Of a stretch of 64,000 nucleotides of DNA, positions 2,453-64,000 are shown piece by piece. A model generated the notes under the pieces. The model was given only the letters and a program-made list of their open reading frames with translations, was not told the origin of the DNA and searched no databases. Origin of the DNA: Candidatus Heimdallarchaeota archaeon (lineage in GTDB: Archaea > Asgardarchaeota > Heimdallarchaeia > JABLTI01); assembly GCA_019058275.1 (NCBI GenBank), contig JAHLVW010000047.1, forward strand, positions 31,996 through 95,995, written 5' to 3'. The translations under genes were made by a program, and so were the position numbers. Position 1 is the stretch's first letter. The number at the start of each line of letters is the position of its first letter.

Positions 2453-4768
2453 TTAATTTTTCTTAATAATGAATTCAGATTCGTGCTTCTTTGGACATGC
2501 TGCGAAAATTATGAGATTCTCCTTGGTAAACAAATCAATTTTTGTTGGAACAAGGGTTTCTGAACCACACTTTGAACATTTGATTTCCAAAACATCTTCT
2601 TCCTCTTCTTCATCACCGAAACCGATGATAGTATCTTCGTGACCTTTTTCACATCTAACTTTAAGAACATCTAACCCAAGCATTTCATTATATTCTCCTT
2701 GTTGCCAAACGATTTTGCTACTACACTTCTTGCAAACCAATTCTGACTCTTCCTTTCCTTTCTGTTCTATTACTGACTCTAAGGAAATGTTGCTTATTAA
2801 TTCATCATGTTTCAAACCAAAATTAGCTAGCTCCATGCCTTCACCTATGTGAACTTTATTCATATCTTTCATTATAAGCGTTAAATCGTTGGAATGTTCT
2901 GCGAGAATTCCATCAAGCAATTTGGAGTATTCCTTAATAGCTTGTTCTAATCTTGTTATTATCTCTGTTAGTGTTATTTTGCTACTAATTGCATCCTTAC
3001 TTATAGATTTCAGAAGCTTCTGTAAAGCAGTTAATGCTTCTGATTTTACTGAGAATTTTTTCAAATCCTTGACATATTCATTTATAGCTATTCCAGTGTC
3101 TTTAGCTAAGTTAATTGCGAATTTCTCTAAATCATTCATTGCTTTATTTGCTTGTTTTACAGTAGGTTTGTAAGAAGGTCTAATGTATCTAGCAATTTTA
3201 CCTTCTAGATTGGGGTTAATACTAACGCCAAGTCCTTCTGAAAATTTATCTTCAAATTCAGAAATTGCTTTTGCTGCTTGAGCTAAACTTCCCTTAAGTA
3301 TCCCTTCTACAGTTTTTAGAGGTCCAAAATCATCAAGATTAACTGAACTTATTTTTACTAATGAATCATCAGATGGAATATCTATAGTATCAGTTTGTCC
3401 TAATATCTTGTTGATATTCTTGATTTTCTTAACAAATTTTTCTTGGGTTGTTACAATATCAGTGGCAATTTCCTTGAGAAGCAAATCGATATTCTTTCTA
3501 TAATCAAGTAGTCCTGGAAAAGCATCAACAATATCAACAAGGCTATTTGGATCTAAACAATTCCCCTTTGTTTCAGCAATCTCATCAAGGATTTTCTTTG
3601 TACTCTTACTTGGGGGAACTTGTTTTATAAACTCGTTTAATTTCTCTTCAATACTACCGTAAGTACCCTCAAAAGCTGATGTAGCCATTGCTGTTGCTTC
3701 TCGTATAATTTTCTCATCATTGACAAGCTTCTCATGTGGATCTTCTGCAACGACATCCACAGTTCTAACAAGAAACTTAGCTGCAGAAATAACCTTTTCA
3801 GAAGATTCTTTCATTTTTGAAAAACTAGTAGAGTTCATATGTATCTCTAGTTTGTACAATTTCTCGATATTCGTGATTAATTCACTAATATCTTTATCTA
3901 ATTCGGATTTTATCTGTTGGATATATGTTTGTCTGGTATCACTAAGTCTATCGTCAATTTTTCGAATAAATTTCAATGCTTTTGTGAATGCTTTGAAACC
4001 ATCTTTAAGCCAATTATCTATTGTTTCATTGACTTTTGAACAGTTTTCTTTTATGAAATCATCAAAGGCAGGACTAGCACGATAATTATTTAGCTTAGTT
4101 TGGAAACGATCATAAACATCTTCAAAAGCTTTAGAATGTGTTTTGAACCCTCGAGTAATGTAGTTTTCAGCTTTTTCAATAATTTCATGATATTTCTCAC
4201 GATATGCTTGTGTATAAACAACTTGTTCATCTCTACTAACTAAACCTTTCTTTGTTTTGGAATGGGTTCTAATTTCTTCCTCTAAAAGATCTATTTGATG
4301 TTTAATGTCAAGAATTTCCTTTTCAAACTTCACAATCGGAAAACCCAATTTAAGCTTCATATCTATAAGCATAGCTTCAACAGAACCATTTATTGTTCGT
4401 AAAATAATAGGTACATCATTAAGTGTAAGAAGAGCATTTTTTCCAATTTGATCAGTGTTTTTTGGTAAAACACCAATAAAAGATCTATCAATTCTTTTTC
4501 CTTGCATTTTTATTTGCTGAGTTTCTTCAAGAAACTTCAAATTTTCTTTAGCAGACTGTGCAAAATTCTCTATCTTTTCCCAAGATTGACTTTTCTTCTC
4601 TTTTTTTAGTTCCCCGATGAAATGGATTAAAGCAGGAAAGTCTTCTCCTTCAAAAGCAGACTTATCACCCATCGCCATAGAAGCTAATCGATCAATTTCA
4701 CGCACAATTTCATCGAGTTCGCCTAAAATAGTATTCCAATCATCTTTTTCAATAGTTGATTCTGACAT
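2453..4768 (-). CDS. large helical/coiled-coil protein with two C-terminal CxxC...CxxxH zinc ribbons
   Basis: 771-aa ORF of amphipathic helices; CKKC...CEKGH and CSKC...CPKKH at the C-terminus. Confidence 0.65.
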   Translation of the reverse strand: MSESTIEKDDWNTILGELDEIVREIDRLASMAMGDKSAFEGEDFPALIHFIGELKKEKKSQSWEKIENFAQSAKENLKFLEETQQIKMQGKRIDRSFIGVLPKNTDQIGKNALLTLNDVPIILRTINGSVEAMLIDMKLKLGFPIVKFEKEILDIKHQIDLLEEEIRTHSKTKKGLVSRDEQVVYTQAYREKYHEIIEKAENYITRGFKTHSKAFEDVYDRFQTKLNNYRASPAFDDFIKENCSKVNETIDNWLKDGFKAFTKALKFIRKIDDRLSDTRQTYIQQIKSELDKDISELITNIEKLYKLEIHMNSTSFSKMKESSEKVISAAKFLVRTVDVVAEDPHEKLVNDEKIIREATAMATSAFEGTYGSIEEKLNEFIKQVPPSKSTKKILDEIAETKGNCLDPNSLVDIVDAFPGLLDYRKNIDLLLKEIATDIVTTQEKFVKKIKNINKILGQTDTIDIPSDDSLVKISSVNLDDFGPLKTVEGILKGSLAQAAKAISEFEDKFSEGLGVSINPNLEGKIARYIRPSYKPTVKQANKAMNDLEKFAINLAKDTGIAINEYVKDLKKFSVKSEALTALQKLLKSISKDAISSKITLTEIITRLEQAIKEYSKLLDGILAEHSNDLTLIMKDMNKVHIGEGMELANFGLKHDELISNISLESVIEQKGKEESELVCKKCSSKIVWQQGEYNEMLGLDVLKVRCEKGHEDTIIGFGDEEEEEDVLEIKCSKCGSETLVPTKIDLFTKENLIIFAACPKKHESEFIIKKN

Positions 4769-22457: not shown

Positions 22458-23069
22458 ATGGATAAAAAGAAAATTGTTCGAGAAGGTTATAATAAAGCTG
22501 CTCAAGCGTATCTAGATAAAAGGCATAAAGATCTAGAAGAAATGAACTTCTTACCAGAATTTTCTTCATATATTCAAAAAGGCGGAAAAGTACTAGATGC
22601 TGGTTGTGGAGGAGGATTACCTTTCACAAAATATCTAAGCGAACGATTTGATGTCATTGGAATAGATATCTCTGAAAAGCAAATTGAACTTGCAAAGAAA
22701 AATGTTCCGAAAGCACAATTTATCAGAAAAGATATGACAAATCTTGATTTTCCAAATGCATTTTTTGATGGAATACTTGCTTATTATTCAATTATTCATG
22801 TTCCTCGAGAAGAACAATTTGATTTATTTGCTAATTTTTATAGAATGCTAAAAGCAAATGGTGTTGCTTTTTTCAGTTTGCATAGTACAGATGATCCAGA
22901 ATCAGTTTTTGATGATTTTTTTGATACCAAAATGTTTTGGAGTGGTTTTGATAAAGAAACAAATATTAAAATGTTGAAGGATATCGGCTTTAAGATCCTC
23001 TGGTCAAAATTAGTAAATGATAGTTTAGGTGATTACCAGCATCTTTTTGTATTAATTAGAAAATCTTGA
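22458..23069 (+). CDS. class I SAM-dependent methyltransferase
   Basis: VLDAGCGGG, GIDISEKQI, FDGILAYYSIIHVP. Confidence 0.9.
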   Translation: MDKKKIVREGYNKAAQAYLDKRHKDLEEMNFLPEFSSYIQKGGKVLDAGCGGGLPFTKYLSERFDVIGIDISEKQIELAKKNVPKAQFIRKDMTNLDFPNAFFDGILAYYSIIHVPREEQFDLFANFYRMLKANGVAFFSLHSTDDPESVFDDFFDTKMFWSGFDKETNIKMLKDIGFKILWSKLVNDSLGDYQHLFVLIRKS

Positions 23070-23242
23070 AAGGTATGCAATATTTTTATCGAAATATTTA
23101 ACTCGAGATTTTTTATCACTATCACTATTCTTTTTAGTGAGTGTGTAAATATGTAGTTATAGCGCTTATATTATAGTGTCTTTTATAGTCGGATTATTTA
23201 GAGCGTTAAAAACTAAAATAGCAAGAGTGAAGGGTGAGTAGA

Positions 23243-25063
23243 ATGGCAGAAAGTTTAGGTGCTGATTTCTTTCTTACATTTGTATTAATACTCTTCCAGT
23301 TAATCTCACTTGGTATTTTCATTACACTCTATATTAGAAAAAGACAAGCTACTTTTCAAGCTTTGATTTTTTCCATAATATTTTTTATAGCAAGTAATAC
23401 AATGACTCTAATATTTATTAATAGAGCACCAACAGACTATCCTTTGGTTCTCTTTCAAGGATTATTAGCTACTGCTGGCTTAATTCCAATTGTTATTTTT
23501 CTTGAAATATTTGAAAGTGGTACGTCATTTACACCTAGAAGCTCAGGATCCATTATTTTTATCATGGTTGTAGGGCTTATTAAGAGTGCAAATTTTGCTT
23601 TTAATCCAGATATTGGTAACTTCATTGGTTTTATGGCACCAATAATGTTTATCTTAGTCGGAGCATTTTATCTTAATACTATTAAGAAAATGAAGTATAG
23701 AATTCGTTTTGAGAATCAAAAGAAAAAGCTAAGAAAAATACGCACTGGCATATATCTTACATTTATTATTCCCAAATTTATTATTGGATCTATCTTTACT
23801 GTAACAGTTTTACCTGTTCTAATCAAATTCTTCGTTGAAAATCCTGAGTTTTTAGAAAATTACAACATTGAATTCCTACAAGAGGCTCAAGCAATCCATA
23901 TTTTTGATATGATACTAAATACATTACAAACTATTGGATTAGTTATTATGAGCTTGCCAATAATCTATAGTCGATCAGTATTCTTTATGCAATCTCGACA
24001 TGTCTCAAAGCTTATTGTAATTAGTAAAGATGGAACTCCAGTTTTTGAATTTCCATTTGAATTAGATGATGAATTATGTGATGAGGTTTTACTAGATGAA
24101 GCATATATGGCTATAAGCACAATCATGAATAAAGGGGGAATTTCATGTGAGCAATTAAAAACGATGAATTTTGGCAATCTCGAGATAATGACCGAAATCA
24201 GAGATGAATTTGCTGCATTGCTCTTAGTAGATCGCCCCACAAAATTCTTGAAAGATTCCTTAGACTTTTTTGCTAATGATTTCCAACAAATATATCCAAA
24301 AAATGTAAGATTAGGTGAACTAAGAACTCAAAAACTCAAATATACTGCAGAGAAAATAATTCAGAAAAGCTTTGACCTTGAGCAAGAGGAATTTGAGCAA
24401 ATTAGAATTATAGTTAGTGAAGGCTATGATCGAGTTGCAGATGAATATCTTAAAACAAGATCTGAAAAGGATGAAGAAGTAAAATTATTGCCTGATTTCA
24501 TGAAAAGGTTGCCAGTAGGAGCAAGAGTTTTAGATGCAGGATGTGGTGCAGGAGAACCCATAACAAGAATTCTCAGTGAAAAATTCAAAGTTACTGGTGT
24601 AGACATCTCAAAAAAGCAAATAGAGAAAGCAAGAGAAACATTACCATTCTGTGAATTTATCTGGCAAGATATGACAACATTAACATTTCCAGATGAATAC
24701 TTTGATGGAATTATATCTTACTATGCTATACCTCATATACCAAGGGAAGAGCATAAAGAGTTACTAGAGAATTTCTTTAGAATGTTGAAGAACAATGGTA
24801 TTGCACTTCTCTGTTTTGGTACTAGTGATGATCCTGGCACTGTAGTAGATGATTTCTTCGGAGTAAAGATGTACTGGAGTAGTTTTGATGTGGGTACCAA
24901 TTTAGAAATGCTCAAAGAAGTAGGCTACCATGTTCTTTGGTTGAGGTTAATCTTCGATGATGTAACAGAAGAACAACACATCTTTGTATTAGCACAAAAA
25001 TTAGATAGAGAATTTCTAGAAGAAATAAAAGAAAATGGTGAGGAAGAAACTCCTCAAGATTAA
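23243..25063 (+). CDS. fusion of 7TM membrane domain, longin-like domain and class I SAM methyltransferase
   Basis: Seven hydrophobic segments; KLIVISKDGTPVF...DEVLL...ISTIM...LKTMNFGNLEI longin-like pattern; C-terminal VLDAGCGAG domain paralogous to the upstream gene; GGGTGA SD before ATG 23243. Confidence 0.75.
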   Translation: MAESLGADFFLTFVLILFQLISLGIFITLYIRKRQATFQALIFSIIFFIASNTMTLIFINRAPTDYPLVLFQGLLATAGLIPIVIFLEIFESGTSFTPRSSGSIIFIMVVGLIKSANFAFNPDIGNFIGFMAPIMFILVGAFYLNTIKKMKYRIRFENQKKKLRKIRTGIYLTFIIPKFIIGSIFTVTVLPVLIKFFVENPEFLENYNIEFLQEAQAIHIFDMILNTLQTIGLVIMSLPIIYSRSVFFMQSRHVSKLIVISKDGTPVFEFPFELDDELCDEVLLDEAYMAISTIMNKGGISCEQLKTMNFGNLEIMTEIRDEFAALLLVDRPTKFLKDSLDFFANDFQQIYPKNVRLGELRTQKLKYTAEKIIQKSFDLEQEEFEQIRIIVSEGYDRVADEYLKTRSEKDEEVKLLPDFMKRLPVGARVLDAGCGAGEPITRILSEKFKVTGVDISKKQIEKARETLPFCEFIWQDMTTLTFPDEYFDGIISYYAIPHIPREEHKELLENFFRMLKNNGIALLCFGTSDDPGTVVDDFFGVKMYWSSFDVGTNLEMLKEVGYHVLWLRLIFDDVTEEQHIFVLAQKLDREFLEEIKENGEEETPQD

Positions 25064-26298
25064 AGAATTTCTAATTCTTTTCCAATCTTTTCAAAAGCTG
25101 CTAATGAAGTATCTAGGTGACCCTTAGTTAAACCAGTGGTCATCATAACTCTTATACGAGCAGTACCTCTTGGAACCATTGGGAAAACAATTGGTAAGGC
25201 GAAAACACCTTCTTCATATAGACGATTACTCATTGCTTTTGCTTTATCATTCTCACCACAGATAATTGGAGTGATAGCTGCAAAAGATTTAGTAGCAGCT
25301 TCAGTAATAGCATGATTGAAGCCTAAATTAACAATGGCTTTTTTGAAGTAGTCACAGTTATCTAACAGTTTAGCTACAACATTGTCAAATTTACCATCTT
25401 TGTTTTCTAAAACCTCAATTGAACCTAGTGATGCTCCAGCAACAGCAGGAGGATGAGAACCACTTAATAGGTAAGTTCTAGTTTTATTACGACAGAAATT
25501 GACTAAATCTTGTGAGCCAGTAATAGCTCCACCTATAGTTCCCATTGCTTTGCTAAAGGTATTCATTTCAACTTGAACTTTACCTTGAAGACCAAAATGA
25601 TCAACAATTCCTTTACCTTTCTTATTGCGACCCAAAACACCATCACCGTGTGCATCATCAACGTAAATCATGGCTCCATACTGTTCAGAAAGTTTTTGGA
25701 TTTCATCTAGCTTAGCAACATCTCCGTCCATTGAGAATACTCCATCTGTAATTACTAGAATCCTTCTAGCATTTGCTTTGTCAGCATTTTGTAAGCATTG
25801 CTCAAGACCACCCATGTCTGAATGTTTATAGATGAAATCTTTTCCTCTCTGGGCTTTTGATAATCTAACACCATCAATAATTGAACCATGATTTAATTCA
25901 TCTGAGATGATCACATCTTCAGTGCTAGTCACAAGTTGAGGAATTACTCCAGCATTTGCAGCATAACCAGATTGGGTTATCATAACTGCTTTTTGCTCTT
26001 TGAATTCTGCTAGCTTTCTCTCTAGCTCCTCATGCAACCACATGTTTCCTGCTAATGCACGAACTGAACCTGAGCCAGCTCCATATTTTTCAACTGCTTC
26101 AAGGGCTTTCTTCACAACATGTGGATGTGTACTTAAATTTAAGTAGTTATTAGAACACATCATGATTACTTTTTTACCCTCAATCACACACTCTGGGTCA
26201 GAACGACTTTCAAGCGTTTTATGCTTCCAATCAAGAGCTTTATCAACTAAATCTTGATATTCAGTTTTCAAAAATCCTACTGGATCTCTTTGTATCAT
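25060..26298 (-). CDS. kbl: glycine C-acetyltransferase (2-amino-3-ketobutyrate CoA ligase)
   Basis: CSNNYLNL, SDELNHGSIIDG, TDGVFSMDGD, VDDAHG, TFSKAMG, VPRGTARIR; tdh nearby. Confidence 0.88.
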   Translation of the reverse strand: MIQRDPVGFLKTEYQDLVDKALDWKHKTLESRSDPECVIEGKKVIMMCSNNYLNLSTHPHVVKKALEAVEKYGAGSGSVRALAGNMWLHEELERKLAEFKEQKAVMITQSGYAANAGVIPQLVTSTEDVIISDELNHGSIIDGVRLSKAQRGKDFIYKHSDMGGLEQCLQNADKANARRILVITDGVFSMDGDVAKLDEIQKLSEQYGAMIYVDDAHGDGVLGRNKKGKGIVDHFGLQGKVQVEMNTFSKAMGTIGGAITGSQDLVNFCRNKTRTYLLSGSHPPAVAGASLGSIEVLENKDGKFDNVVAKLLDNCDYFKKAIVNLGFNHAITEAATKSFAAITPIICGENDKAKAMSNRLYEEGVFALPIVFPMVPRGTARIRVMMTTGLTKGHLDTSLAAFEKIGKELEIL

Positions 26299-26541
26299 GT
26301 AATTTTAACTCCGAAAACTATAATTTTTCTTTTACTCATTATGAAATTTCATTACAATTTAAACTTTTTTTCTAAGTAATATTAATTACCACTTTAAATT
26401 TCGAATTTCTAATGAAAATTTCCATTAATTCATTTGTATTTATTGAGTAATTACTTTTATTAATGAGAAGCTGTAGCAATCTGATAGAAGATTTTTTAAT
26501 TTAACCTATTTTGAATTAAATTAAGGAAGTGAAACTACTAG

Positions 26542-27402
26542 ATGTCTAGAAGAGGAGAACCAAAAAAAAGCAGACTTGAAGATGATTTGTTTGATCCAGA
26601 CAAAGATATGGAAAAAGAAATCGAAGGTCTCCCTAGTCGTAATGAATTAGTTGTTGCAACAGTACGAGATGTTACAGGTCATGGAGCTTATGTATCACTT
26701 GATGAGTTTGATGATCGACGTGCTTATGTTCACATCTCAGAATTATCTAGAACTTGGGTAAAGAACATTAGAGTACATGTTCGTGAAGGACAAAGAATTG
26801 TTGCCAAAGTTCTTCGTGTTGATATTCGCAAAAACCAAATTGACTTGAGTATTAAACGTGTCCCCGAACAAATGAAGAAGCTAAAATTATTAGAATCTAA
26901 ACGAGCTCAGACAGCAAATACGCTTTTCAAAATGATTGTAGACAAAATGCCTGCAGAAGAACGCAAGAATGCTGTTGAGATTAGAGATATACTCGTTACT
27001 CACCATGATTTGCTGTATTACGGATTGGAATTTGCTTCACAAGCATCTCAAAAAGATTTAACTAATATAGGTATAGATGAAAAATGGGCTAAGGTCATTC
27101 GTAAAATAGCTCATGATAATATAATTCCTGCAACTGTTGAGATTAAAGGGACTGTTGAAATTACCATACCAGGAGGAAATGGTGTTCATATTCTGAAAGA
27201 AGCTCTAATACTTGGAAGGGATAATATTAAGGAGAAAAATACTGAGATTAAAATCTACACTGAAGGTAGTCCTCGATATGCTATTGAAGTTACATCTGAG
27301 GATTACAAGCTTGCAGAAAAAGCTCTTGAGAATGCCTTGGAACGTATAGAAGATATTGTAGAAGATAACCAAGGATCTTTCTCATTCACCAGGAAGAAAT
27401 AA
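26542..27402 (+). CDS. eif2a: translation initiation factor 2 alpha subunit
   Basis: S1 domain GAYVSLDEF..HISELSRTWVKNIR..KVLRVD..QIDLS; GSPRY..DYKLAEK; followed by nop10. Confidence 0.95.
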   Translation: MSRRGEPKKSRLEDDLFDPDKDMEKEIEGLPSRNELVVATVRDVTGHGAYVSLDEFDDRRAYVHISELSRTWVKNIRVHVREGQRIVAKVLRVDIRKNQIDLSIKRVPEQMKKLKLLESKRAQTANTLFKMIVDKMPAEERKNAVEIRDILVTHHDLLYYGLEFASQASQKDLTNIGIDEKWAKVIRKIAHDNIIPATVEIKGTVEITIPGGNGVHILKEALILGRDNIKEKNTEIKIYTEGSPRYAIEVTSEDYKLAEKALENALERIEDIVEDNQGSFSFTRKK

Positions 27403-57322: not shown

Positions 57323-57406
57323 TATTTATTGCATTAGTAAATCAACTTCTCCAACAATTTTATTAAGAAGAGTTAACAATAAGTAGTATATAGGATGGGT
57401 TAACAA

Positions 57407-58858
57407 ATGGTTAGTAACTTGTATGAACATCCAATGATAAAGTCCTATTTCAACAAGTATCCTAGACGAAGGAATAAGATAACTTCAGACCTAAGGATAT
57501 ATTGTAAAGAAAGGGGAATAACTGTTGATGAATTACTAGAACTAGGAGCGACTGAACATCAAAGATTCATTGACTATATACTCAATGCTAAGAATAACCG
57601 TGATGTCAACACTCGTAGGATACGGGTATCACAAATTAAACACTTCTTAAGGTTTCACGGTATTAATATTCCTAAATACACTCGAGTAAAACCGAAAAAG
57701 AAATCATACTATGATGGTGATGAAATACTTGAGCGGTATCTCTATTATGGTAGTTCATCTTATAGTGCTAGTTATCGCAAGAAATTATCCCTAACAACGT
57801 ATTGTAAATTTAGGAATATGACTCCTCAGGAAATATATCAAGAAGGATTGGATAAATCAGAAGAGGAACTACATTATCAAATAATGCTCTATTACAGAAA
57901 CGTGATAGAACCAAAAGGGAACAAGTCTGGATGGAAATCCTATATTACTCCTTTAATCCACTTCTATCTTAAAATGTGTAAGAAAAGTTGTGAATTCAAT
58001 TCTGGTGAACGCCCTCAAGGTGGAAAGCGATTAAGGGATAATGTAACTGTGAATAAGGATATTGTCAGGCAGTTATTAGAAGGAGCGGATGAACGCGATA
58101 GAATGGTCATACTTGCTCTATGGGATTCGGGTATGAATTCTGTTGACTTAGCAAATCTAACATATGGTATGCTAAAGAACTATCTTAATCTGGATAACCC
58201 TGAATTTATCAACGAAATTGCGGTCATAAAATATATCCGTCAGAAAACCAATAATGAATATTATATTGTATTTGGTAAACAATCATTAAGAGCAATGAGT
58301 GTATGGCTAAAAATGCGTAGGGATGGGAATTTATGGGAAAAAGAATCAATTGACGATTCTACTGTGATAATAACTCGTAAAACTTATCCGTTTGTCAAAT
58401 TACAATCCTTTTCATTCACCTATATCATAAAAACAAGGTCAAGGTTATGTGGATTTGATAAATATTACACTCCCGCTAATTTCAGAAACTCATTCAACAC
58501 TAGATTACAACGAGCAGGGGTATCCTATGTGGATAAAGAAATGTTAATGGGACATTCTATAGGATTAGATCATCATTACTTGGAAACAACTCCATCTTAC
58601 TACAGGGAACTCATAGAGGATATTTATGATGAGTATTTCAATCTTGATACTCTTGATTTACAGGATAAAACATTACGTCAAGACTTGATGGAAAAGGATA
58701 AATTGATTTCCCAACTTGCTACGGATAAGGAAAATCTCAGCGAAAAGGTTGAGGGTTTAGAATCAAAATTCAACTCTATGATAAAATTATTGAAATCTGG
58801 AAAAGGTGGAATCCTGTTAGAATATTCAGATACTTACGAGTCTGATGTAGAGGAATAA
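57407..58858 (+). CDS. tyrosine recombinase/integrase, non-canonical active site
   Basis: LWDSGMNSVDL..L.YG, RQKT, TPANFRNSF, LMGH, HY; duplicated N-terminal YC....T..E domains; C-terminal coiled coil. Confidence 0.85.
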   Translation: MVSNLYEHPMIKSYFNKYPRRRNKITSDLRIYCKERGITVDELLELGATEHQRFIDYILNAKNNRDVNTRRIRVSQIKHFLRFHGINIPKYTRVKPKKKSYYDGDEILERYLYYGSSSYSASYRKKLSLTTYCKFRNMTPQEIYQEGLDKSEEELHYQIMLYYRNVIEPKGNKSGWKSYITPLIHFYLKMCKKSCEFNSGERPQGGKRLRDNVTVNKDIVRQLLEGADERDRMVILALWDSGMNSVDLANLTYGMLKNYLNLDNPEFINEIAVIKYIRQKTNNEYYIVFGKQSLRAMSVWLKMRRDGNLWEKESIDDSTVIITRKTYPFVKLQSFSFTYIIKTRSRLCGFDKYYTPANFRNSFNTRLQRAGVSYVDKEMLMGHSIGLDHHYLETTPSYYRELIEDIYDEYFNLDTLDLQDKTLRQDLMEKDKLISQLATDKENLSEKVEGLESKFNSMIKLLKSGKGGILLEYSDTYESDVEE

Positions 58859-58869
58859 CCGCTCACTAG

Positions 58870-58883
58870 ACACTTATAAGTGT
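58870..58883. repeat. 14-bp perfect palindrome between integrase and Rep genes
   Basis: ACACTTATAAGTGT. Confidence 0.6.
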
Positions 58884-59035
58884 TATATGCTGTGAACACC
58901 CCGACAATCATTGAAAATACCTATTTAAATACAGAAACTCATAGTGTATATAGTTTTTATTTTATCAGAAATCAAAATTATTGTTCTATCTAATCTCCCG
59001 AGGGTTAGTGTAGACTAAAAGAAAGGTGATAAAAT

Positions 59036-60796
59036 ATGTCAATGAAATTAATACAATCAAAATTAACACCAAAAGAGTATATATTGAAAATCTCAGTTCA
59101 ACTCATTATCGGTCCTCCTGGTTCAGGAAAATCAAAATGGTATAAAGAAAATGAAATGTCTGGTGATGAAAAATCTATATTATTCGGTCATTCTCACGAT
59201 TTTATTGATGAACAAAAAGAATGGTTAGATGACTATATTCATCTTGAAGGATTTGATAGATTGTGTTTATGTATCCATGAAAAAAATCCATCTCTACCCG
59301 ATTTAATTATTAGAGCATATCATAATGCTAAATTCTCAAACAAAATAAAATGTGGAATATGTAGAGAAATAAACAAAGAAAAATATAATGATTGTCCTTT
59401 TCATAGGCGGTCTAAAAAGAAATCAAATAACATCCTTGCTCCATTTTCATACATTCCCACGAAAACTCTTAAGGACGGAATTTTTGATAATGTTATTATC
59501 GACGATTGTCCCGATAAATGCTTCCCACAACCACATATAGATGTTTTACAAAAGAAATTAGACGTGTTCCTAGATTTCACACCTAAAATGACTGTTAAGG
59601 AATTTATTGAAAGAGAAGATTTTGATGACCTCATCGAATGTTATCAACAAAATCATAGAAGTCGTTTAAGAGAACTAAGAGGATGTCTAGATCCTGACAT
59701 CATTACAAGCCATTCAGAAAGGTATGTATTACATATCAACTTTGATAAATTCCATGAATTCAAAACAAATGTGAATGAATATGGTTATCAAGAACAATAT
59801 TCACATCATGCCTACCTCAAATTATTTGATTATAAAAAGAATAATCCTGATACTGAAATAATAATTGTTGATGCCAATCCAAGTCAAATCATTCTCGATT
59901 TATTAAAAGAACGATTCTATTGTGATACAGGAGTTAAAGTCAATCTCAAAAGAAAATTAATGAAGTTTCTATCTGAACCTACTCCTACTATAATAACTAG
60001 ATTAGGAACAAGAAACGCATGTTATCCTTGCGGATCAATAGGCAAAAAACAACAATTGATGATGAAACTTATAGTTCAACATATCTTAGATTCACGTCAT
60101 AATGGTGGGTTTGATGAAAATGGAAATCCTCTAAAAATTGGAGTGCTTATTCGGATGTCTGACAATCTTTCCGATTATTTCTTCATGGAAACGGGGTTAG
60201 ATATTATTCAACCTTATCTCCATTTTGGTAATGTTAAATCCTCTAATAAATATCAGAATGTCAACCTCTATTTCATATTTGGGATGTATACAATTCCTTG
60301 GAAATCAATGGAAAAAAAATTCACTCTCATGTTTCATAAACAACCGAAATCTACGAAATCCATAAAGAAGGGAGATTATTACAATTATACTGAGGATGAA
60401 GAGTTAGACGCTTTTAGGGAATCGTATGTAGAATATGAACATTATCAACAAATAATGCGAGCTAGACCGTTTACAAATCCATGTCATATCTACAGTTTTG
60501 GTCCTATTCCTATGTCATACATTCCTAATCATATGGTTGTTGAGGAATTGGATATGTCTCCTTATGGTTGCCTTAAACGTGAAATATGGTTTGAAGGATT
60601 TATTAAAAATGAAGGTAAGGATCTTTCATTTGAGGAGATATGTAATGTAGTTGGAGAAGAATATCCAACAATGAAATCCATTAGAACACGAACGGATGCT
60701 ATCCGTAAATGGGTTAATAATAATCCTGACCTTGAGTTTGTTCACGATTCTTCTGATAGATATTATAAAATTCTAGGAGTGATACCAGTAAGATAA
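59036..60796 (+). CDS. SF2-like helicase / putative replication protein with Cys cluster and C-terminal wHTH
   Basis: Walker A IIGPPGSGKS, C.C..CGIC..CPFH, Walker B VIIDD, HFGNVKSSN, motif VI-like EHYQQIMRARP. Confidence 0.65.
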   Translation: MSMKLIQSKLTPKEYILKISVQLIIGPPGSGKSKWYKENEMSGDEKSILFGHSHDFIDEQKEWLDDYIHLEGFDRLCLCIHEKNPSLPDLIIRAYHNAKFSNKIKCGICREINKEKYNDCPFHRRSKKKSNNILAPFSYIPTKTLKDGIFDNVIIDDCPDKCFPQPHIDVLQKKLDVFLDFTPKMTVKEFIEREDFDDLIECYQQNHRSRLRELRGCLDPDIITSHSERYVLHINFDKFHEFKTNVNEYGYQEQYSHHAYLKLFDYKKNNPDTEIIIVDANPSQIILDLLKERFYCDTGVKVNLKRKLMKFLSEPTPTIITRLGTRNACYPCGSIGKKQQLMMKLIVQHILDSRHNGGFDENGNPLKIGVLIRMSDNLSDYFFMETGLDIIQPYLHFGNVKSSNKYQNVNLYFIFGMYTIPWKSMEKKFTLMFHKQPKSTKSIKKGDYYNYTEDEELDAFRESYVEYEHYQQIMRARPFTNPCHIYSFGPIPMSYIPNHMVVEELDMSPYGCLKREIWFEGFIKNEGKDLSFEEICNVVGEEYPTMKSIRTRTDAIRKWVNNNPDLEFVHDSSDRYYKILGVIPVR

Positions 60797-60804
60797 AATA
60801 ACAA

Positions 60805-60911
60805 TTTAATTAGTTAAATAGACATTAGTCATAAACGTAAATTCCTTTAATATAATACCGTTTATATATATATATCTACGTTTATGACTAATAGATATTT
60901 AATCAATTAAA
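60805..60911. repeat. large inverted repeat around a (TA)n core, candidate replication origin
   Basis: ATTAGTCATAAACGTA (60824-60839) / TACGTTTATGACTAAT (60877-60892) perfect 16 bp; outer arms 60805-60820 / 60896-60911 match 14/16. Confidence 0.75.
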
Positions 60912-60927
60912 CTGCTATTTAAGTAAA

Positions 60928-61085
60928 GACACTGTCCAAAAAGGTAGAGGTTAATTTAATCTCGGGATTTCTATTTTATCACCTTCTTAACTTTCTACTT
61001 TGGATAAAAGTGTTTATTAAAACATTTCCGACTGTTCTAGAGCCTCCTTTTACTAAAACGAGCCCTCTGGAACCTCGCTTTTGTT
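60928..61085 (+). ncRNA. candidate structured RNA (two G-U-containing hairpins, U-rich end) with loop antisense to the Rep RBS
   Basis: Stem 60928-60954/60987-61014; stem 61034-61073; loop TATTTTATCACCTT (60972-60985) is the exact reverse complement of 59023-59036. Confidence 0.45.
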
Positions 61086-61518
61086 GTTTATTAGATGTTT
61101 AGACATATGTCTCAATATTGTTTAACACTCACAATCACTGAAAATAAGTTTAAATTTGTAGAATACCTCTATCAAATAGTTTAGAAGTATTGAAAAGTCC
61201 AATCTTAAGAATTGAAGAGGTCTTATTCCTTCTTGATATTCTCTTCATTTCAGATAGTGGATATAGAATCTAAAAGAAAAAGAATTAATGATAAACCGAG
61301 TTTTAAGTGATTCTTTATTTTACCTTAAAGCCATTTAGAAGTTAGGATTCGGCTCTTGACTGTGACCGTTCTTAGTTCTATCTCACAAGGAAAGGCGATC
61401 GTGTAAGATTGTCAATTATGAATAATATAAAAATCAGACATAATATTGATTGTTCTGGTTGTCGGGGAAGAGGTTGATAAAATCGCTTCCTCTAAACCTA
61501 AAAGGAAGAATAAGAAAT

Positions 61519-61722
61519 ATGGAATCTGTAGAAGTTAATAAATCGGAGTTAATCACTCATGACAATTTGTTGTTCTGTTCAGCAAAATGTTATGAAAAGT
61601 GGTTAAATAAAGAGTTGAAAAAGTATAGACCAAAGAGAGTAAAAAGAAGAAGGGAAAATATACTCATCACTATTATTGGATTATCACTTGTGATTCTAAT
61701 ATTCTTACTTATGTATTTCTGA
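61519..61722 (+). CDS. small membrane-anchored protein with FCS..C half-finger (possibly 3' part of a frameshifted gene starting at 61418)
   Basis: LLFCSAKC, basic stretch, C-terminal TM helix. Confidence 0.5.
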   Translation: MESVEVNKSELITHDNLLFCSAKCYEKWLNKELKKYRPKRVKRRRENILITIIGLSLVILIFLLMYF

Positions 61723-61734
61723 AGACTTGATGAA

Positions 61735-61929
61735 ATGAGCAAATTTATAACCTTCATCATGAAAGTCATAGAAATTATTAGGGAATTCCTATCCGTTGTT
61801 AATCCAAGAGATGCAGCTATAAAGATGATTGTAATATTTTTATCTCTTTTGTTAGCAGTATCATTATTGCTTATAATCCTCAAGTTATTGGAAAAATGGA
61901 TAAAATCTATTATAGAAAAAAGGAGGTGA
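61735..61929 (+). CDS. small single-TM protein
   Basis: 64 aa with long hydrophobic helix; co-oriented in operon. Confidence 0.55.
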   Translation: MSKFITFIMKVIEIIREFLSVVNPRDAAIKMIVIFLSLLLAVSLLLIILKLLEKWIKSIIEKRR

Positions 61930-61933
61930 ATCT

Positions 61934-62122
61934 ATGGTCGATCAAGGAGTAAGTAGAACTGTCACAACGAGTGAATATATAACATATGCTATGATTATTC
62001 TTGGAGATGGAGAATACACAAAATTGACTCCAGAGAAAATCAAGTCGATAATAAAACACGTCAAGGATAAAACATTACTCATTGAAAACTTACAAATGAT
62101 CATAAAGGAACTCAGAAAATAG
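61934..62122 (+). CDS. small hypothetical protein
   Basis: Strong AGGAGGTGA SD upstream; overlaps next gene. Confidence 0.6.
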   Translation: MVDQGVSRTVTTSEYITYAMIILGDGEYTKLTPEKIKSIIKHVKDKTLLIENLQMIIKELRK

Positions 62123-62616
62123 TGGAGTCTGCTATAATTCGGACATGTCCAGTCTGTGGTTCACCACTAGGATATTGGCAAAATAAATACTGCTCTGTCC
62201 AATGTTGTGGATATGCAAAACGGAAGAGTCCTAAAAAGGAAGTTCCTAAAAAGATTCCTAAAAGGAAGGAGAAACTCGTATATTGTGATTACGCAAAAAT
62301 ATGTTTAGTTTGTGGAATTCCTTTATCTCATCTAAAAACTAAATCTAAATACTGTTCCCGTAAATGTCTTGGAATCTCAAGATGGAAAGATCCTAGAGGA
62401 ACTCAGAAGGAACTTAATAAACAGAATCCTAAACAGTGGACTGGGTATATGATTATAAAGAAGAATAAGGATAAAATCATCGACATCTTGGATAAAAATA
62501 AAGCCAATATAATGTTTCAATGTAAAAATTGTGGAATTGAATCAAGGAAAATATATTATAATCAAGAATTCTGTCATAGAGAATGTTATCAAGAATATAA
62601 GGAATCAATAAAATGA
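62122..62616 (+). CDS. multi zinc-finger protein (three CxxC..[YF]C[SH]xxC repeats)
   Basis: CPVCG..KYCSVQC, CLVCG..KYCSRKC, CKNCG..EFCHREC. Confidence 0.75.
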   Translation: MESAIIRTCPVCGSPLGYWQNKYCSVQCCGYAKRKSPKKEVPKKIPKRKEKLVYCDYAKICLVCGIPLSHLKTKSKYCSRKCLGISRWKDPRGTQKELNKQNPKQWTGYMIIKKNKDKIIDILDKNKANIMFQCKNCGIESRKIYYNQEFCHRECYQEYKESIK

Positions 62617-62798
62617 AAAAGAAACGGAAATATCTAGTTAAGAAATGTCTTCATTGTGGATGTAGATTTTATGACGATGTTTGCCCTAGATGCTCATCTA
62701 TACCTCGGGACAAGGAAGAGGTGGTATTGATTCCGATTGATGTTGATGATTATATAGTTGATGAGAAGGAAAAGAGAACCTTGGAGGTTATTGTTTAA
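62613..62798 (+). CDS. small zinc-ribbon protein
   Basis: CLHCG..CPRC; ATG overlaps upstream stop. Confidence 0.65.
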   Translation: MKKKRKYLVKKCLHCGCRFYDDVCPRCSSIPRDKEEVVLIPIDVDDYIVDEKEKRTLEVIV

Positions 62799-63046
62799 TG
62801 ATTTGTAATTATTCGAAATGTGATTTGCCTATAAGTCGTCATGGGACTAAATATTGTTCTTGTCACCATGCCGCTCTCGCGAGATGGGAAGATCCTTTGT
62901 ATAAGGATAAAATCCATACTCTTGAAAAACAAAAGAAAATGAGAAAAGGACATAAAAGATATTATGTTGAAAAGAGTCTGAAAAAGGAAGACAAATTGAT
63001 CAAGAAAGTTCAGAAAGAGGTTAGAAAGGGAATTACTGCTCATTAA
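62798..63046 (+). CDS. small zinc-finger, basic protein
   Basis: C...KC...KYCS.HH..ARW.DP, similar to repeat 2 of ORF 62122; TAATG coupling, GGAGG SD. Confidence 0.65.
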   Translation: MICNYSKCDLPISRHGTKYCSCHHAALARWEDPLYKDKIHTLEKQKKMRKGHKRYYVEKSLKKEDKLIKKVQKEVRKGITAH

Positions 63047-63117
63047 TACCATTTGTATCTCAATGAGACTGTGAAAAGAGTTATGACCTTCACAGTATTT
63101 TCATAAAAATTTTACCT

Positions 63118-63145
63118 ACTCTCCAACCTATGCTGGGGAGTTTTT
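63118..63145 (+). terminator. hairpin plus T-run after the small-ORF operon
   Basis: ACTCTCCA..TGGGGAGT followed by TTTT; second IR ACTGTGAA/TTCACAGT at 63068-63096. Confidence 0.45.
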
Positions 63146-63238
63146 CGGTTACAAAAACAAGGTCTAGCGGAGGCTAAAATGAATAGGAGTGAATAATATG
63201 AATAAAAAAAAAAAAGAATAAGAAAAAGGTGAAGAATA

Positions 63239-64000
63239 ATGAATTTTAATGAAATGAACAAGTTAACAGAAGAATGTGAGAATATTAGACTAAAAACTAG
63301 AGTGAAGAGTTTGGAACAAGAAGTGGAACGACTTCGTGAGAAGAAAACTACTACAAAGAAACGGAGATTCGGTAAACCATCTACAACAGGAATTGTCGCT
63401 TCATTCATAATTATTTTATTCATGGTTACGTCATTACCATATAATTATGAAGTGAATTCTGTTACAAGTCCTACATGGAGTGTTTCAAATACTGCACCTG
63501 CAAATAATGGAATTTGTTTAAATGCAGATGAAGTTGATCCCACATTCTCTGGAAAAGCGACAGTGAAGAATAATGATGCTGGGACAGCCACTTTTCAAGC
63601 AAATTGGAAATTATATGTTGATACAGTTCAAAAAGATAGTGGTTCTAAAACAAAAGTCATTGCTAGTGGAGTTACGGATGATATTACTTTCTGGACTACT
63701 TATGATGTCTACAGTGACGGTTTTGGTGAGCATACTTACTATTTTGGGGTGAATCTTAAATGTATTTTACCATGTAGTGACGATTTTGGCTCAAAAAGTG
63801 CTAGTTCGAGAACTATGTATGCAGTAGATTGGGTCTCTCACCATGTGAAAGCGGATGTTTATACACCCATGGATGAGTTCAGTTTTCCATACTTTACTAC
63901 GATCGAAACGTTTGGATATGACTGTTCTTTAAGTATTATTACTGGATCTTCTTACCAAATGGCAATAAATGCTCGTCTTTATGTTGATGATGTGTACAAG
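63239..64000 (+). CDS. type II membrane protein: coiled coil, TM, then extracellular Ig/CARDB-like beta domains (3'-truncated; absent from ORF track)
   Basis: Translated by hand, open to window end: MNFNEMNKL..RVKSLEQEVERLRE..GIVASFIIILFMV..ATVKNNDAG..WKLYVD..GEHTYYF..ARLYVDDVYK; AGGTGA SD at 63227. Confidence 0.75.
   Translation, partial: MNFNEMNKLTEECENIRLKTRVKSLEQEVERLREKKTTTKKRRFGKPSTTGIVASFIIILFMVTSLPYNYEVNSVTSPTWSVSNTAPANNGICLNADEVDPTFSGKATVKNNDAGTATFQANWKLYVDTVQKDSGSKTKVIASGVTDDITFWTTYDVYSDGFGEHTYYFGVNLKCILPCSDDFGSKSASSRTMYAVDWVSHHVKADVYTPMDEFSFPYFTTIETFGYDCSLSIITGSSYQMAINARLYVDDVYK

Follow-up and report, generated by a model that had tools for sequence, protein, structure and literature searches.

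A hairpin encoded on the + strand beyond the helicase gene of an integrated archaeal element carries, wholly within its apical loop, a perfect 14-nt complement to the ribosome-binding site of that gene. This anatomy is real and statistically unusual. It is plausible that an RNA bearing the loop, either as the 3' UTR of the helicase mRNA or as a separate sRNA, occludes the helicase ribosome-binding site, a reading that we put forward tentatively. If correct, it would give Asgard elements their first candidate circuit of RNA-based control and would match, in an archaeon, the immunity RNAs that phages P1 and P4 encode on the strand of their target genes; it would be a variation on a familiar form of control in a little-studied host group. 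To our knowledge, almost nothing is known about how Asgard archaeal mobile elements control their replication or remain quiescent when integrated, and no RNA regulators of such elements are described in the literature searched. The present example is a single unconserved case, and its value lies in offering a concrete, cheaply testable hypothesis.

The integrated element and its helicase gene

The host assembly consists of 118 contigs (4.12 Mb, 32.5% GC), and the window, meaning the whole stretch of DNA that was analysed, is the final 64 kb of one contig. The host 16S gene scores 1326 bits against the archaeal model and 993 against the bacterial one, and AAAG-TTTAAAA-type BRE/TATA boxes are found upstream of the host tRNA genes. 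The integrated element spans from approximately 57,350 to the contig end. Its features that bear on the helicase gene are as follows.

57407-58858, tyrosine integrase gene (PF00589), directly upstream of the helicase gene
58904-58931, + strand, P1: 16-nt motif ACAATCATTGAAAATA, then the TATA-like TTTAAATA (58924-58931)
58958-58967, + strand, S1: TATTTTATCA, in the predicted 5' leader; complementary to 59027-59036 and the same 10-mer as in the hairpin-1 loop
58985-59014, + strand, leader hairpin: apical CCCGA, with UCCCGAG (58996-59002) at the tip
59023-59036, + strand, proposed target AAGGTGATAAAATA: SD GGTGAT (59025-59030), spacer and the A of the ATG (59036)
59036-60796, + strand, helicase gene (586 aa), initially annotated as Rep
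60796-60920, both strands, large inverted repeat: 125 nt, 47-nt arms, (TA)n centre, beginning at the helicase stop codon
60927-61015, + strand, hairpin 1: 13-bp and 12-bp stems, 32-nt apical loop (60955-60986)
61034-61092, + strand, hairpin 2 and T-rich tract: candidate transcript end; the tract (61079-61092) reads T4-G-TT-G-TTT-A-TT
61131-61156, + strand, P2: ACAATCACTGAAAATA, then TTTAAATT, upstream of a small-ORF cluster
61468-61483, + strand, site C: AAGAGGTTGATAAAAT, 14/16 complementary to the hairpin-1 loop, 37 nt before ATG 61520

The inverted repeat and both hairpins lie in a non-coding stretch of about 720-724 bp 3' of the helicase gene (60797-61520 as queried). This stretch is neither a dispersed repeat nor a MITE, as blastn against the whole genome returns only chance matches of 19 nt or less. 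Beyond it comes a run of small Zn-finger and membrane ORFs, with the Zn-finger proteins encoded at 62122-63046; the ORF starting at ATG 61520 encodes a 67-residue protein that has a CxxC pair and, at its C terminus, a membrane helix.

The 586-aa protein has no match in Pfam or PHROG and belongs to a family that has no model in either. Its AlphaFold (AF2) model has a pLDDT of 83, and because Foldseek identifies XPD and DinG helicases as the best matches of the model (E 6e-9), we assign the protein to the XPD/DinG-like SF2 helicases; the prediction is of such a helicase with a Cys cluster. The name Rep had been given by inference and is not borne out by this fold, although a role for the helicase in replication of the element is plausible. 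A word-based protein search matches the helicase only to itself, and an exhaustive HMMER search identifies about 80 distant homologues, all at 30% identity or less. These relatives share the Walker A, DD and Q..R.RP motifs. Four invariant or near-invariant cysteines across the family (C77, C106, C109 and C120) fall between Walker A and Walker B, where the FeS domain of XPD and DinG also sits. A homologue of the helicase is present in 2 of 400 genomes of the same phylum, and the family is nearly absent from binned Asgard genomes. The element itself has no close relatives among 12 genomes of the same order and the 400 of the same phylum, which yield one distant match, and neither the metagenome contigs nor the genome contigs searched contain an exact 25-mer taken from the loop and the 3' arm of hairpin 1.

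Hairpin 1 and its complement to the helicase start

The host 16S 3' end reads ...ATCACCTCC, and since GGTGAT matches it, GGTGAT is a true SD. The reverse complement of AAGGTGATAAAATA is located at 60972-60985, 1,935 nt downstream on the same (+) strand, and the 14-mer pair is unique, with only these two copies in the 4.12-Mb genome. The initial annotation had reported this perfect complement and its continuation past a one-base bulge, and both are present; in alignment the match grows to 18/19 with a one-base gap, and the extended segment covers 60969-60989. A second complement that it had described, between CUCGGGA in the loop (60961-60967) and UCCCGAG in the leader, is likewise found, and the two complements are not collinear.

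Hairpin 1, the strongest local hairpin, folds as RNA to -21.4 kcal/mol on the + strand with four G-U pairs (z -2.5), as compared with -15.8 on the - strand (z -1.5), and the 14-mer is contained entirely in its apical loop. Hairpin 2 (61034-61073) is also present and is followed by the T-rich tract. Its energies are practically the same on the two strands (-14.1 on + vs -13.9 on -, with one G-U pair; RNA z -3.2 and -1.7, respectively). Thus the earlier statement that both hairpins rely on G-U pairs that work only on the + strand holds for hairpin 1 and fails for hairpin 2. Moreover, the inverted repeat at 60796-60920 is more stable when its minus strand is folded (-44.8 vs -34.1, five G-U pairs), and because this adjacent structure shows the opposite bias, G-U asymmetry is weak evidence for a + strand RNA. 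With the bias inconsistent among neighbouring structures, we dropped it as an indicator of strand. As single-stranded DNA hairpin 1 is weak (z -1.35), and a 32-nt spacer is poor for cruciform formation; hence, if the stem-loop matters at all, RNA is its likelier form. Rfam models identify only tRNA in the whole window at the gathering threshold, with no match to RF01695 or any other family, and in the region 58800-61600 at E up to 1 they return only a chance snoR14 match inside an ORF. By eye, the RNA is neither H/ACA-like nor C/D-like.

The loop segment that would have to pair is accessible. Opening the anti-RBS segment of the loop costs +2.0 kcal/mol and opening the ribosome-binding site +5.5, while the loop-RBS duplex is worth -15.4 kcal/mol for the 14-mer and -20.3 for the extended match. 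RNAcofold forms this duplex in the minimum-energy dimer of the hairpin region and the leader, which is more stable by about 6 kcal/mol than the two folded apart. The loop thus presents an accessible single-stranded segment complementary to both the SD and the start codon, which is the arrangement expected of RBS masking. The leader hairpin is weak (-9 kcal/mol, z -0.5).

P1 is the predicted promoter of the helicase gene, and a TSS is likewise predicted from it. P1 and P2 form a direct repeat with 15/16 identity of the motif plus the TATA-like box in a + strand alignment, and this duplication suggests two co-regulated promoters with a shared operator. In its wider form (58895-58931 and 61124-61156) the repeat consists of AACAC, a few bases, ACAATCAYTGAAAATA, 2-4 bases and a TTTAAAT box. 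A promoter PWM built from 24 tRNA upstream regions and dominated by the A-rich BRE flagged neither P1 nor P2. Hairpin 2 and the T-tract are positioned about 35 nt upstream of P2, which would suit a transcript end, and they may serve as a terminator. One would expect a + strand transcript that starts at P1 to stop there, in which case hairpin 1 would belong to the helicase 3' UTR. The helicase transcript might, however, already end at the inverted repeat of the stop codon, before hairpin 1 is reached. A TATA-like CTATTTAAGTA at 60915-60925 resembles the P1 box and could instead provide the start of a separate short RNA.

From these elements we infer transcription of the + strand, pairing in the cell and repression of translation. 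Hairpin 1 would be produced from the + strand either as the 3' tail of the helicase mRNA or as a short RNA whose 3' end is at hairpin 2 and the T-tract. Its 32-nt loop would pair with the helicase start on the same element, from the SD across the spacer to the start codon, and the duplex would block ribosome entry, holding down helicase synthesis. The GC-rich stretch of 7 nt through which the loop could meet the tip of the leader hairpin may represent a first kissing contact, and S1, the shorter anti-RBS copy in the leader, could mask the ribosome-binding site in cis. The accessible loop and the favourable duplex speak for RBS occlusion, as originally proposed for this segment; the ranking of genomic targets and the homologue loci, both considered below, speak against it.

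Site C could form a duplex of -16.0 kcal/mol with the hairpin-1 loop. A local hairpin of the small-ORF leader (61464-61492; GGGGAAG.GGUU ... AAUC.CUUCCUC) buries it.

Chance, DNA-level and other explanations

Pure coincidence is a minority view, doubtful in our estimation but deserving serious attention. It holds that hairpin 1 is a genuine but imperfect inverted repeat, lying in non-coding DNA that is rich in AT and in repeats and may be part of a replication origin, and that the hairpin-1 loop matches the helicase start by chance. To gauge this, the RBS region (-20..+6) of each of 2,115 crude SD-led genes was compared with the gene's own 400-nt 3' region. A reverse-complement match of at least 14 nt occurs in one gene of the 2,115, the helicase gene. 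Shuffled pairings of genes with 3' regions produce 3 such matches in 21,150, or about 1.4e-4 per gene (~1/7,000). The same rate amounts to about 0.3 matches of at least 14 nt per genome, and the case was selected from a very large scan, both of which favor coincidence. Matches of 12 nt between 3' regions and ribosome-binding sites are in slight excess in the genome (6 vs ~1.6 expected). None of those in the other six genes with such matches lies in a comparable hairpin, and for this reason we see no general 3'-region-to-RBS mechanism in this genome.

The figures are less striking when the search extends beyond the ribosome-binding site. When the 277-nt leader region is aligned openly with the intergenic region of 723 nt, an equal score is obtained in 22 of 300 shuffles (P ~0.07), and the intergenic query (724 nt) has many exact matches of 14-18 nt across the genome. 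Words of the GATAAAAT type are also locally abundant. On the other side, the match does not fall just anywhere; it strikes the ribosome-binding site of the neighbouring gene and does so from within an accessible loop. The 18/19 extension agrees with it, as do the additional 7-nt complement (P ~0.09) and the copy in the leader, for internal leader complements of at least 10 nt, such as S1, are present in only 9 of 2,142 genes (P ~0.004). Furthermore, although the 10-mer core TATTTTATCA has 112 genomic copies, only here do three of them (leader, ribosome-binding site and loop) cluster within 2.1 kb.

The helicase start had been expected to rank at or near the top of all start regions in the genome. 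RNAduplex against 7,204 candidate start regions places it near the top, though not first, 29th when the whole 32-nt loop is the query and 6th when the query is the 21-nt core. Other start regions pair with the hairpin-1 loop as well or better, which is a further point for coincidence, and only perfect Watson-Crick pairing singles out the helicase start. The helicase start is not a unique target in the broader sense because the loop resembles the anti-SD and G-U pairs help other SD-led genes.

Conservation likewise gives no help to RBS occlusion. Compensatory changes in related elements had been suggested as a check, and no compensatory or analogous pairing is found at six distant homologue loci (L005/L006, L011, L012, L013, L014 and G042), where complements reach 6-9 nt and the energies of downstream-RBS duplexes are no better than those of shuffles. 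The missing pairing is what coincidence would predict, but with these loci at 30% protein identity or less it constitutes weak negative evidence.

An unlikely alternative, though one with several observations to its credit, is that the shared word acts at the level of DNA. Its core TGATAAAAT, in extended form AAGA..GGTGATAAAATA, would be a binding site for a regulator or initiator encoded by the element, shared between the helicase gene and the origin-like region in the manner of iteron plasmids, or else the remnant of a duplicated promoter-leader segment; the candidate protein-binding word is TGATAAAATA with its flanks. The local frequencies are suggestive. GATAAAAT occurs nine times in the element (57350-64000) vs 1.4 expected from the genome-wide rate, and TGATAAAAT four times in 58859-61519 vs 0.22 expected. 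Five of the GATAAAAT copies are non-coding or at gene edges (58959 on -, 59028 on +, 60792 on +, 60973 on - and 61476 on +). Copies are found in both orientations, one of them near the predicted TSS (58958), and a third extended copy stands in direct orientation at 61468-61483. P1 and P2 are clearly duplicated, the region past the helicase gene looks origin-like, with a (TA)n inverted repeat both here and in the Asgard genome G042 (where direct repeats are added), and the downstream genes encode small Zn-finger proteins. Several GATAAAAT copies, however, merely correspond to Asp-Lys-Ile or Ile-Lys codons in ORFs, and the extended copies differ by internal 1-nt indels, which fit RNA bulges better than a rigid protein site. 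In addition, the best pair includes the SD itself, which there is no reason to expect as part of an operator, and the binding protein is only putative.

An invertible cassette is very improbable. The 14-bp (18/19) sequences at 59023-59036 and 60972-60985 are inverted repeats that flank the helicase gene together with its own inverted repeat, and there is a very slim chance that they are crossover sites of a tyrosine recombinase. Inversion would then swap promoters in a replication cassette and switch the DNA between silent and replicating states. A flip would keep the SD and ATG and place the gene under a minus-strand promoter from the P2 side. The repeats bracket the gene exactly from the SD onward, the inverted sequence can be read directly as SD, spacer and ATG, the TATA-like box of P2 is nearly palindromic, and a tyrosine integrase gene stands immediately upstream, so that both the repeats and the recombinase of an inverton are in place. 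Nevertheless, the assembly holds a single orientation, the repeats lack an internal dyad of the recombinase type, a spacing of 1.9 kb and a cargo the size of a gene would be atypical among known invertons, and no homologue locus has the flanking repeats.

Finally, the idea that the loop is the ribosome-binding site of a decayed minus-strand gene can be set aside as highly unlikely, for although the minus strand of the loop reads AAGAAGGTGATAAAATA, a good SD with spacer, ATAG stands where ATG would be expected, the longest minus-strand frame is open for 3-7 codons with no minus-strand ORF of at least 20 aa starting there, and the hairpin arms bracket the site symmetrically next to a conserved inverted repeat.

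Known regulatory RNAs and the inverted repeat of the helicase family

The closest functional parallels to an RBS-occluding hairpin 1 include bacteriophage RNAs. The c4 RNA of P1 and P7 and the CI RNA of P4 (Rfam C4, RF01695) are immunity RNAs whose genes share a strand with their targets and are set apart from them. Short exposed segments of these RNAs pair with two segments of a mobile-element mRNA, one of which covers the ribosome-binding site. Hairpin 1 is similarly a candidate same-strand RNA with two complementary segments, one over the ribosome-binding site. Unlike c4 and CI, it lies 3' of its target, belongs to an archaeal element and has no RF01695 match, and its target encodes a helicase, where theirs is an antirepressor or a replication operon.

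Two plasmid paradigms also invite comparison. In the hok mRNA of plasmid R1 (fbi/tac), the 3' end pairs with the very 5' end of the message, not with the SD, and the gene encodes a small toxin. A hok-type fold-back is rejected here, where the pairing would involve the SD and AUG, the 5'-proximal S1 is identical rather than complementary to the loop, and the gene encodes a 586-aa helicase. CopA/CopT, RNAI and RNAII of pMV158 are stem-loop countertranscripts whose loops initiate pairing with the rep leader and lower its translation. Such RNAs are transcribed from the opposite strand of the leader and are fully complementary to it. A cis-encoded countertranscript is likewise rejected, as the complement is 1,935 nt downstream on the same (+) strand and extends over 14-18 nt only.

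Archaeal precedents for the separate components exist. In Methanosarcina mazei, sRNA162 uses a single-stranded region to base-pair with an mRNA, and so masks a ribosome-binding site predicted there (PMC3510493). Hairpin 1 shares with it the candidate masking of a ribosome-binding site by an archaeal RNA. The two differ in that sRNA162 is experimentally shown, chromosomal and directed at an internal cistron, whereas hairpin 1 is known from sequence, would pair through a hairpin loop and resides in an integrated element. In Haloferax and Halobacterium, 5' and 3' UTRs are needed together in translational control (PMC2636863). The haloarchaeal study showed no direct base-pairing between the UTRs (PMC2636863), as opposed to the candidate pairing over the SD and AUG across 1.9 kb described here. 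If hairpin 1 is part of the helicase 3' UTR, it would resemble both the haloarchaeal UTRs and the hok fold-back in that translation of a message is set by its 3' portion acting on the 5' portion.

A side result may prove more solid than the pairing itself, namely that an inverted repeat recurs in this orphan helicase family, placed at the stop codon or shortly beyond it. The inverted repeat in the window (60796-60920) is pronounced as DNA, with z ~-6.4 on both strands. Inverted repeats with 40-48-nt arms begin at the helicase stop at three homologue loci (L013:5733-5826, L014:2869-2965 and L005:7808-7903), and a short one is located 17 nt past the stop at a fourth (L011:2015-2077). At the G042 locus (L009, reverse strand), a (TA)n-centred inverted repeat is found about 60-120 nt past the stop. 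It and the inverted repeat in the window have a similar ACGTAAA..CCTTTA core in addition to the (TA)n centre, and in G042 it is followed by two tandem 18-nt direct repeats (17/18 identical). The helicase gene and the inverted repeat appear to be the conserved module of the family, and the repeat looks like an origin (or a terminator). Hairpins 1 and 2 are specific to the element in the window.

In G042, the 780-aa helicase homologue is encoded at two loci on a single contig, L009 and L010 (G042:C26:3149-6925 and 22993-26769). The loci are 19,844 bp apart and identical at 3,777/3,777 bases, which is consistent with a circular element of ~19.8 kb whose assembly ran through more than one turn, or with duplication in tandem.
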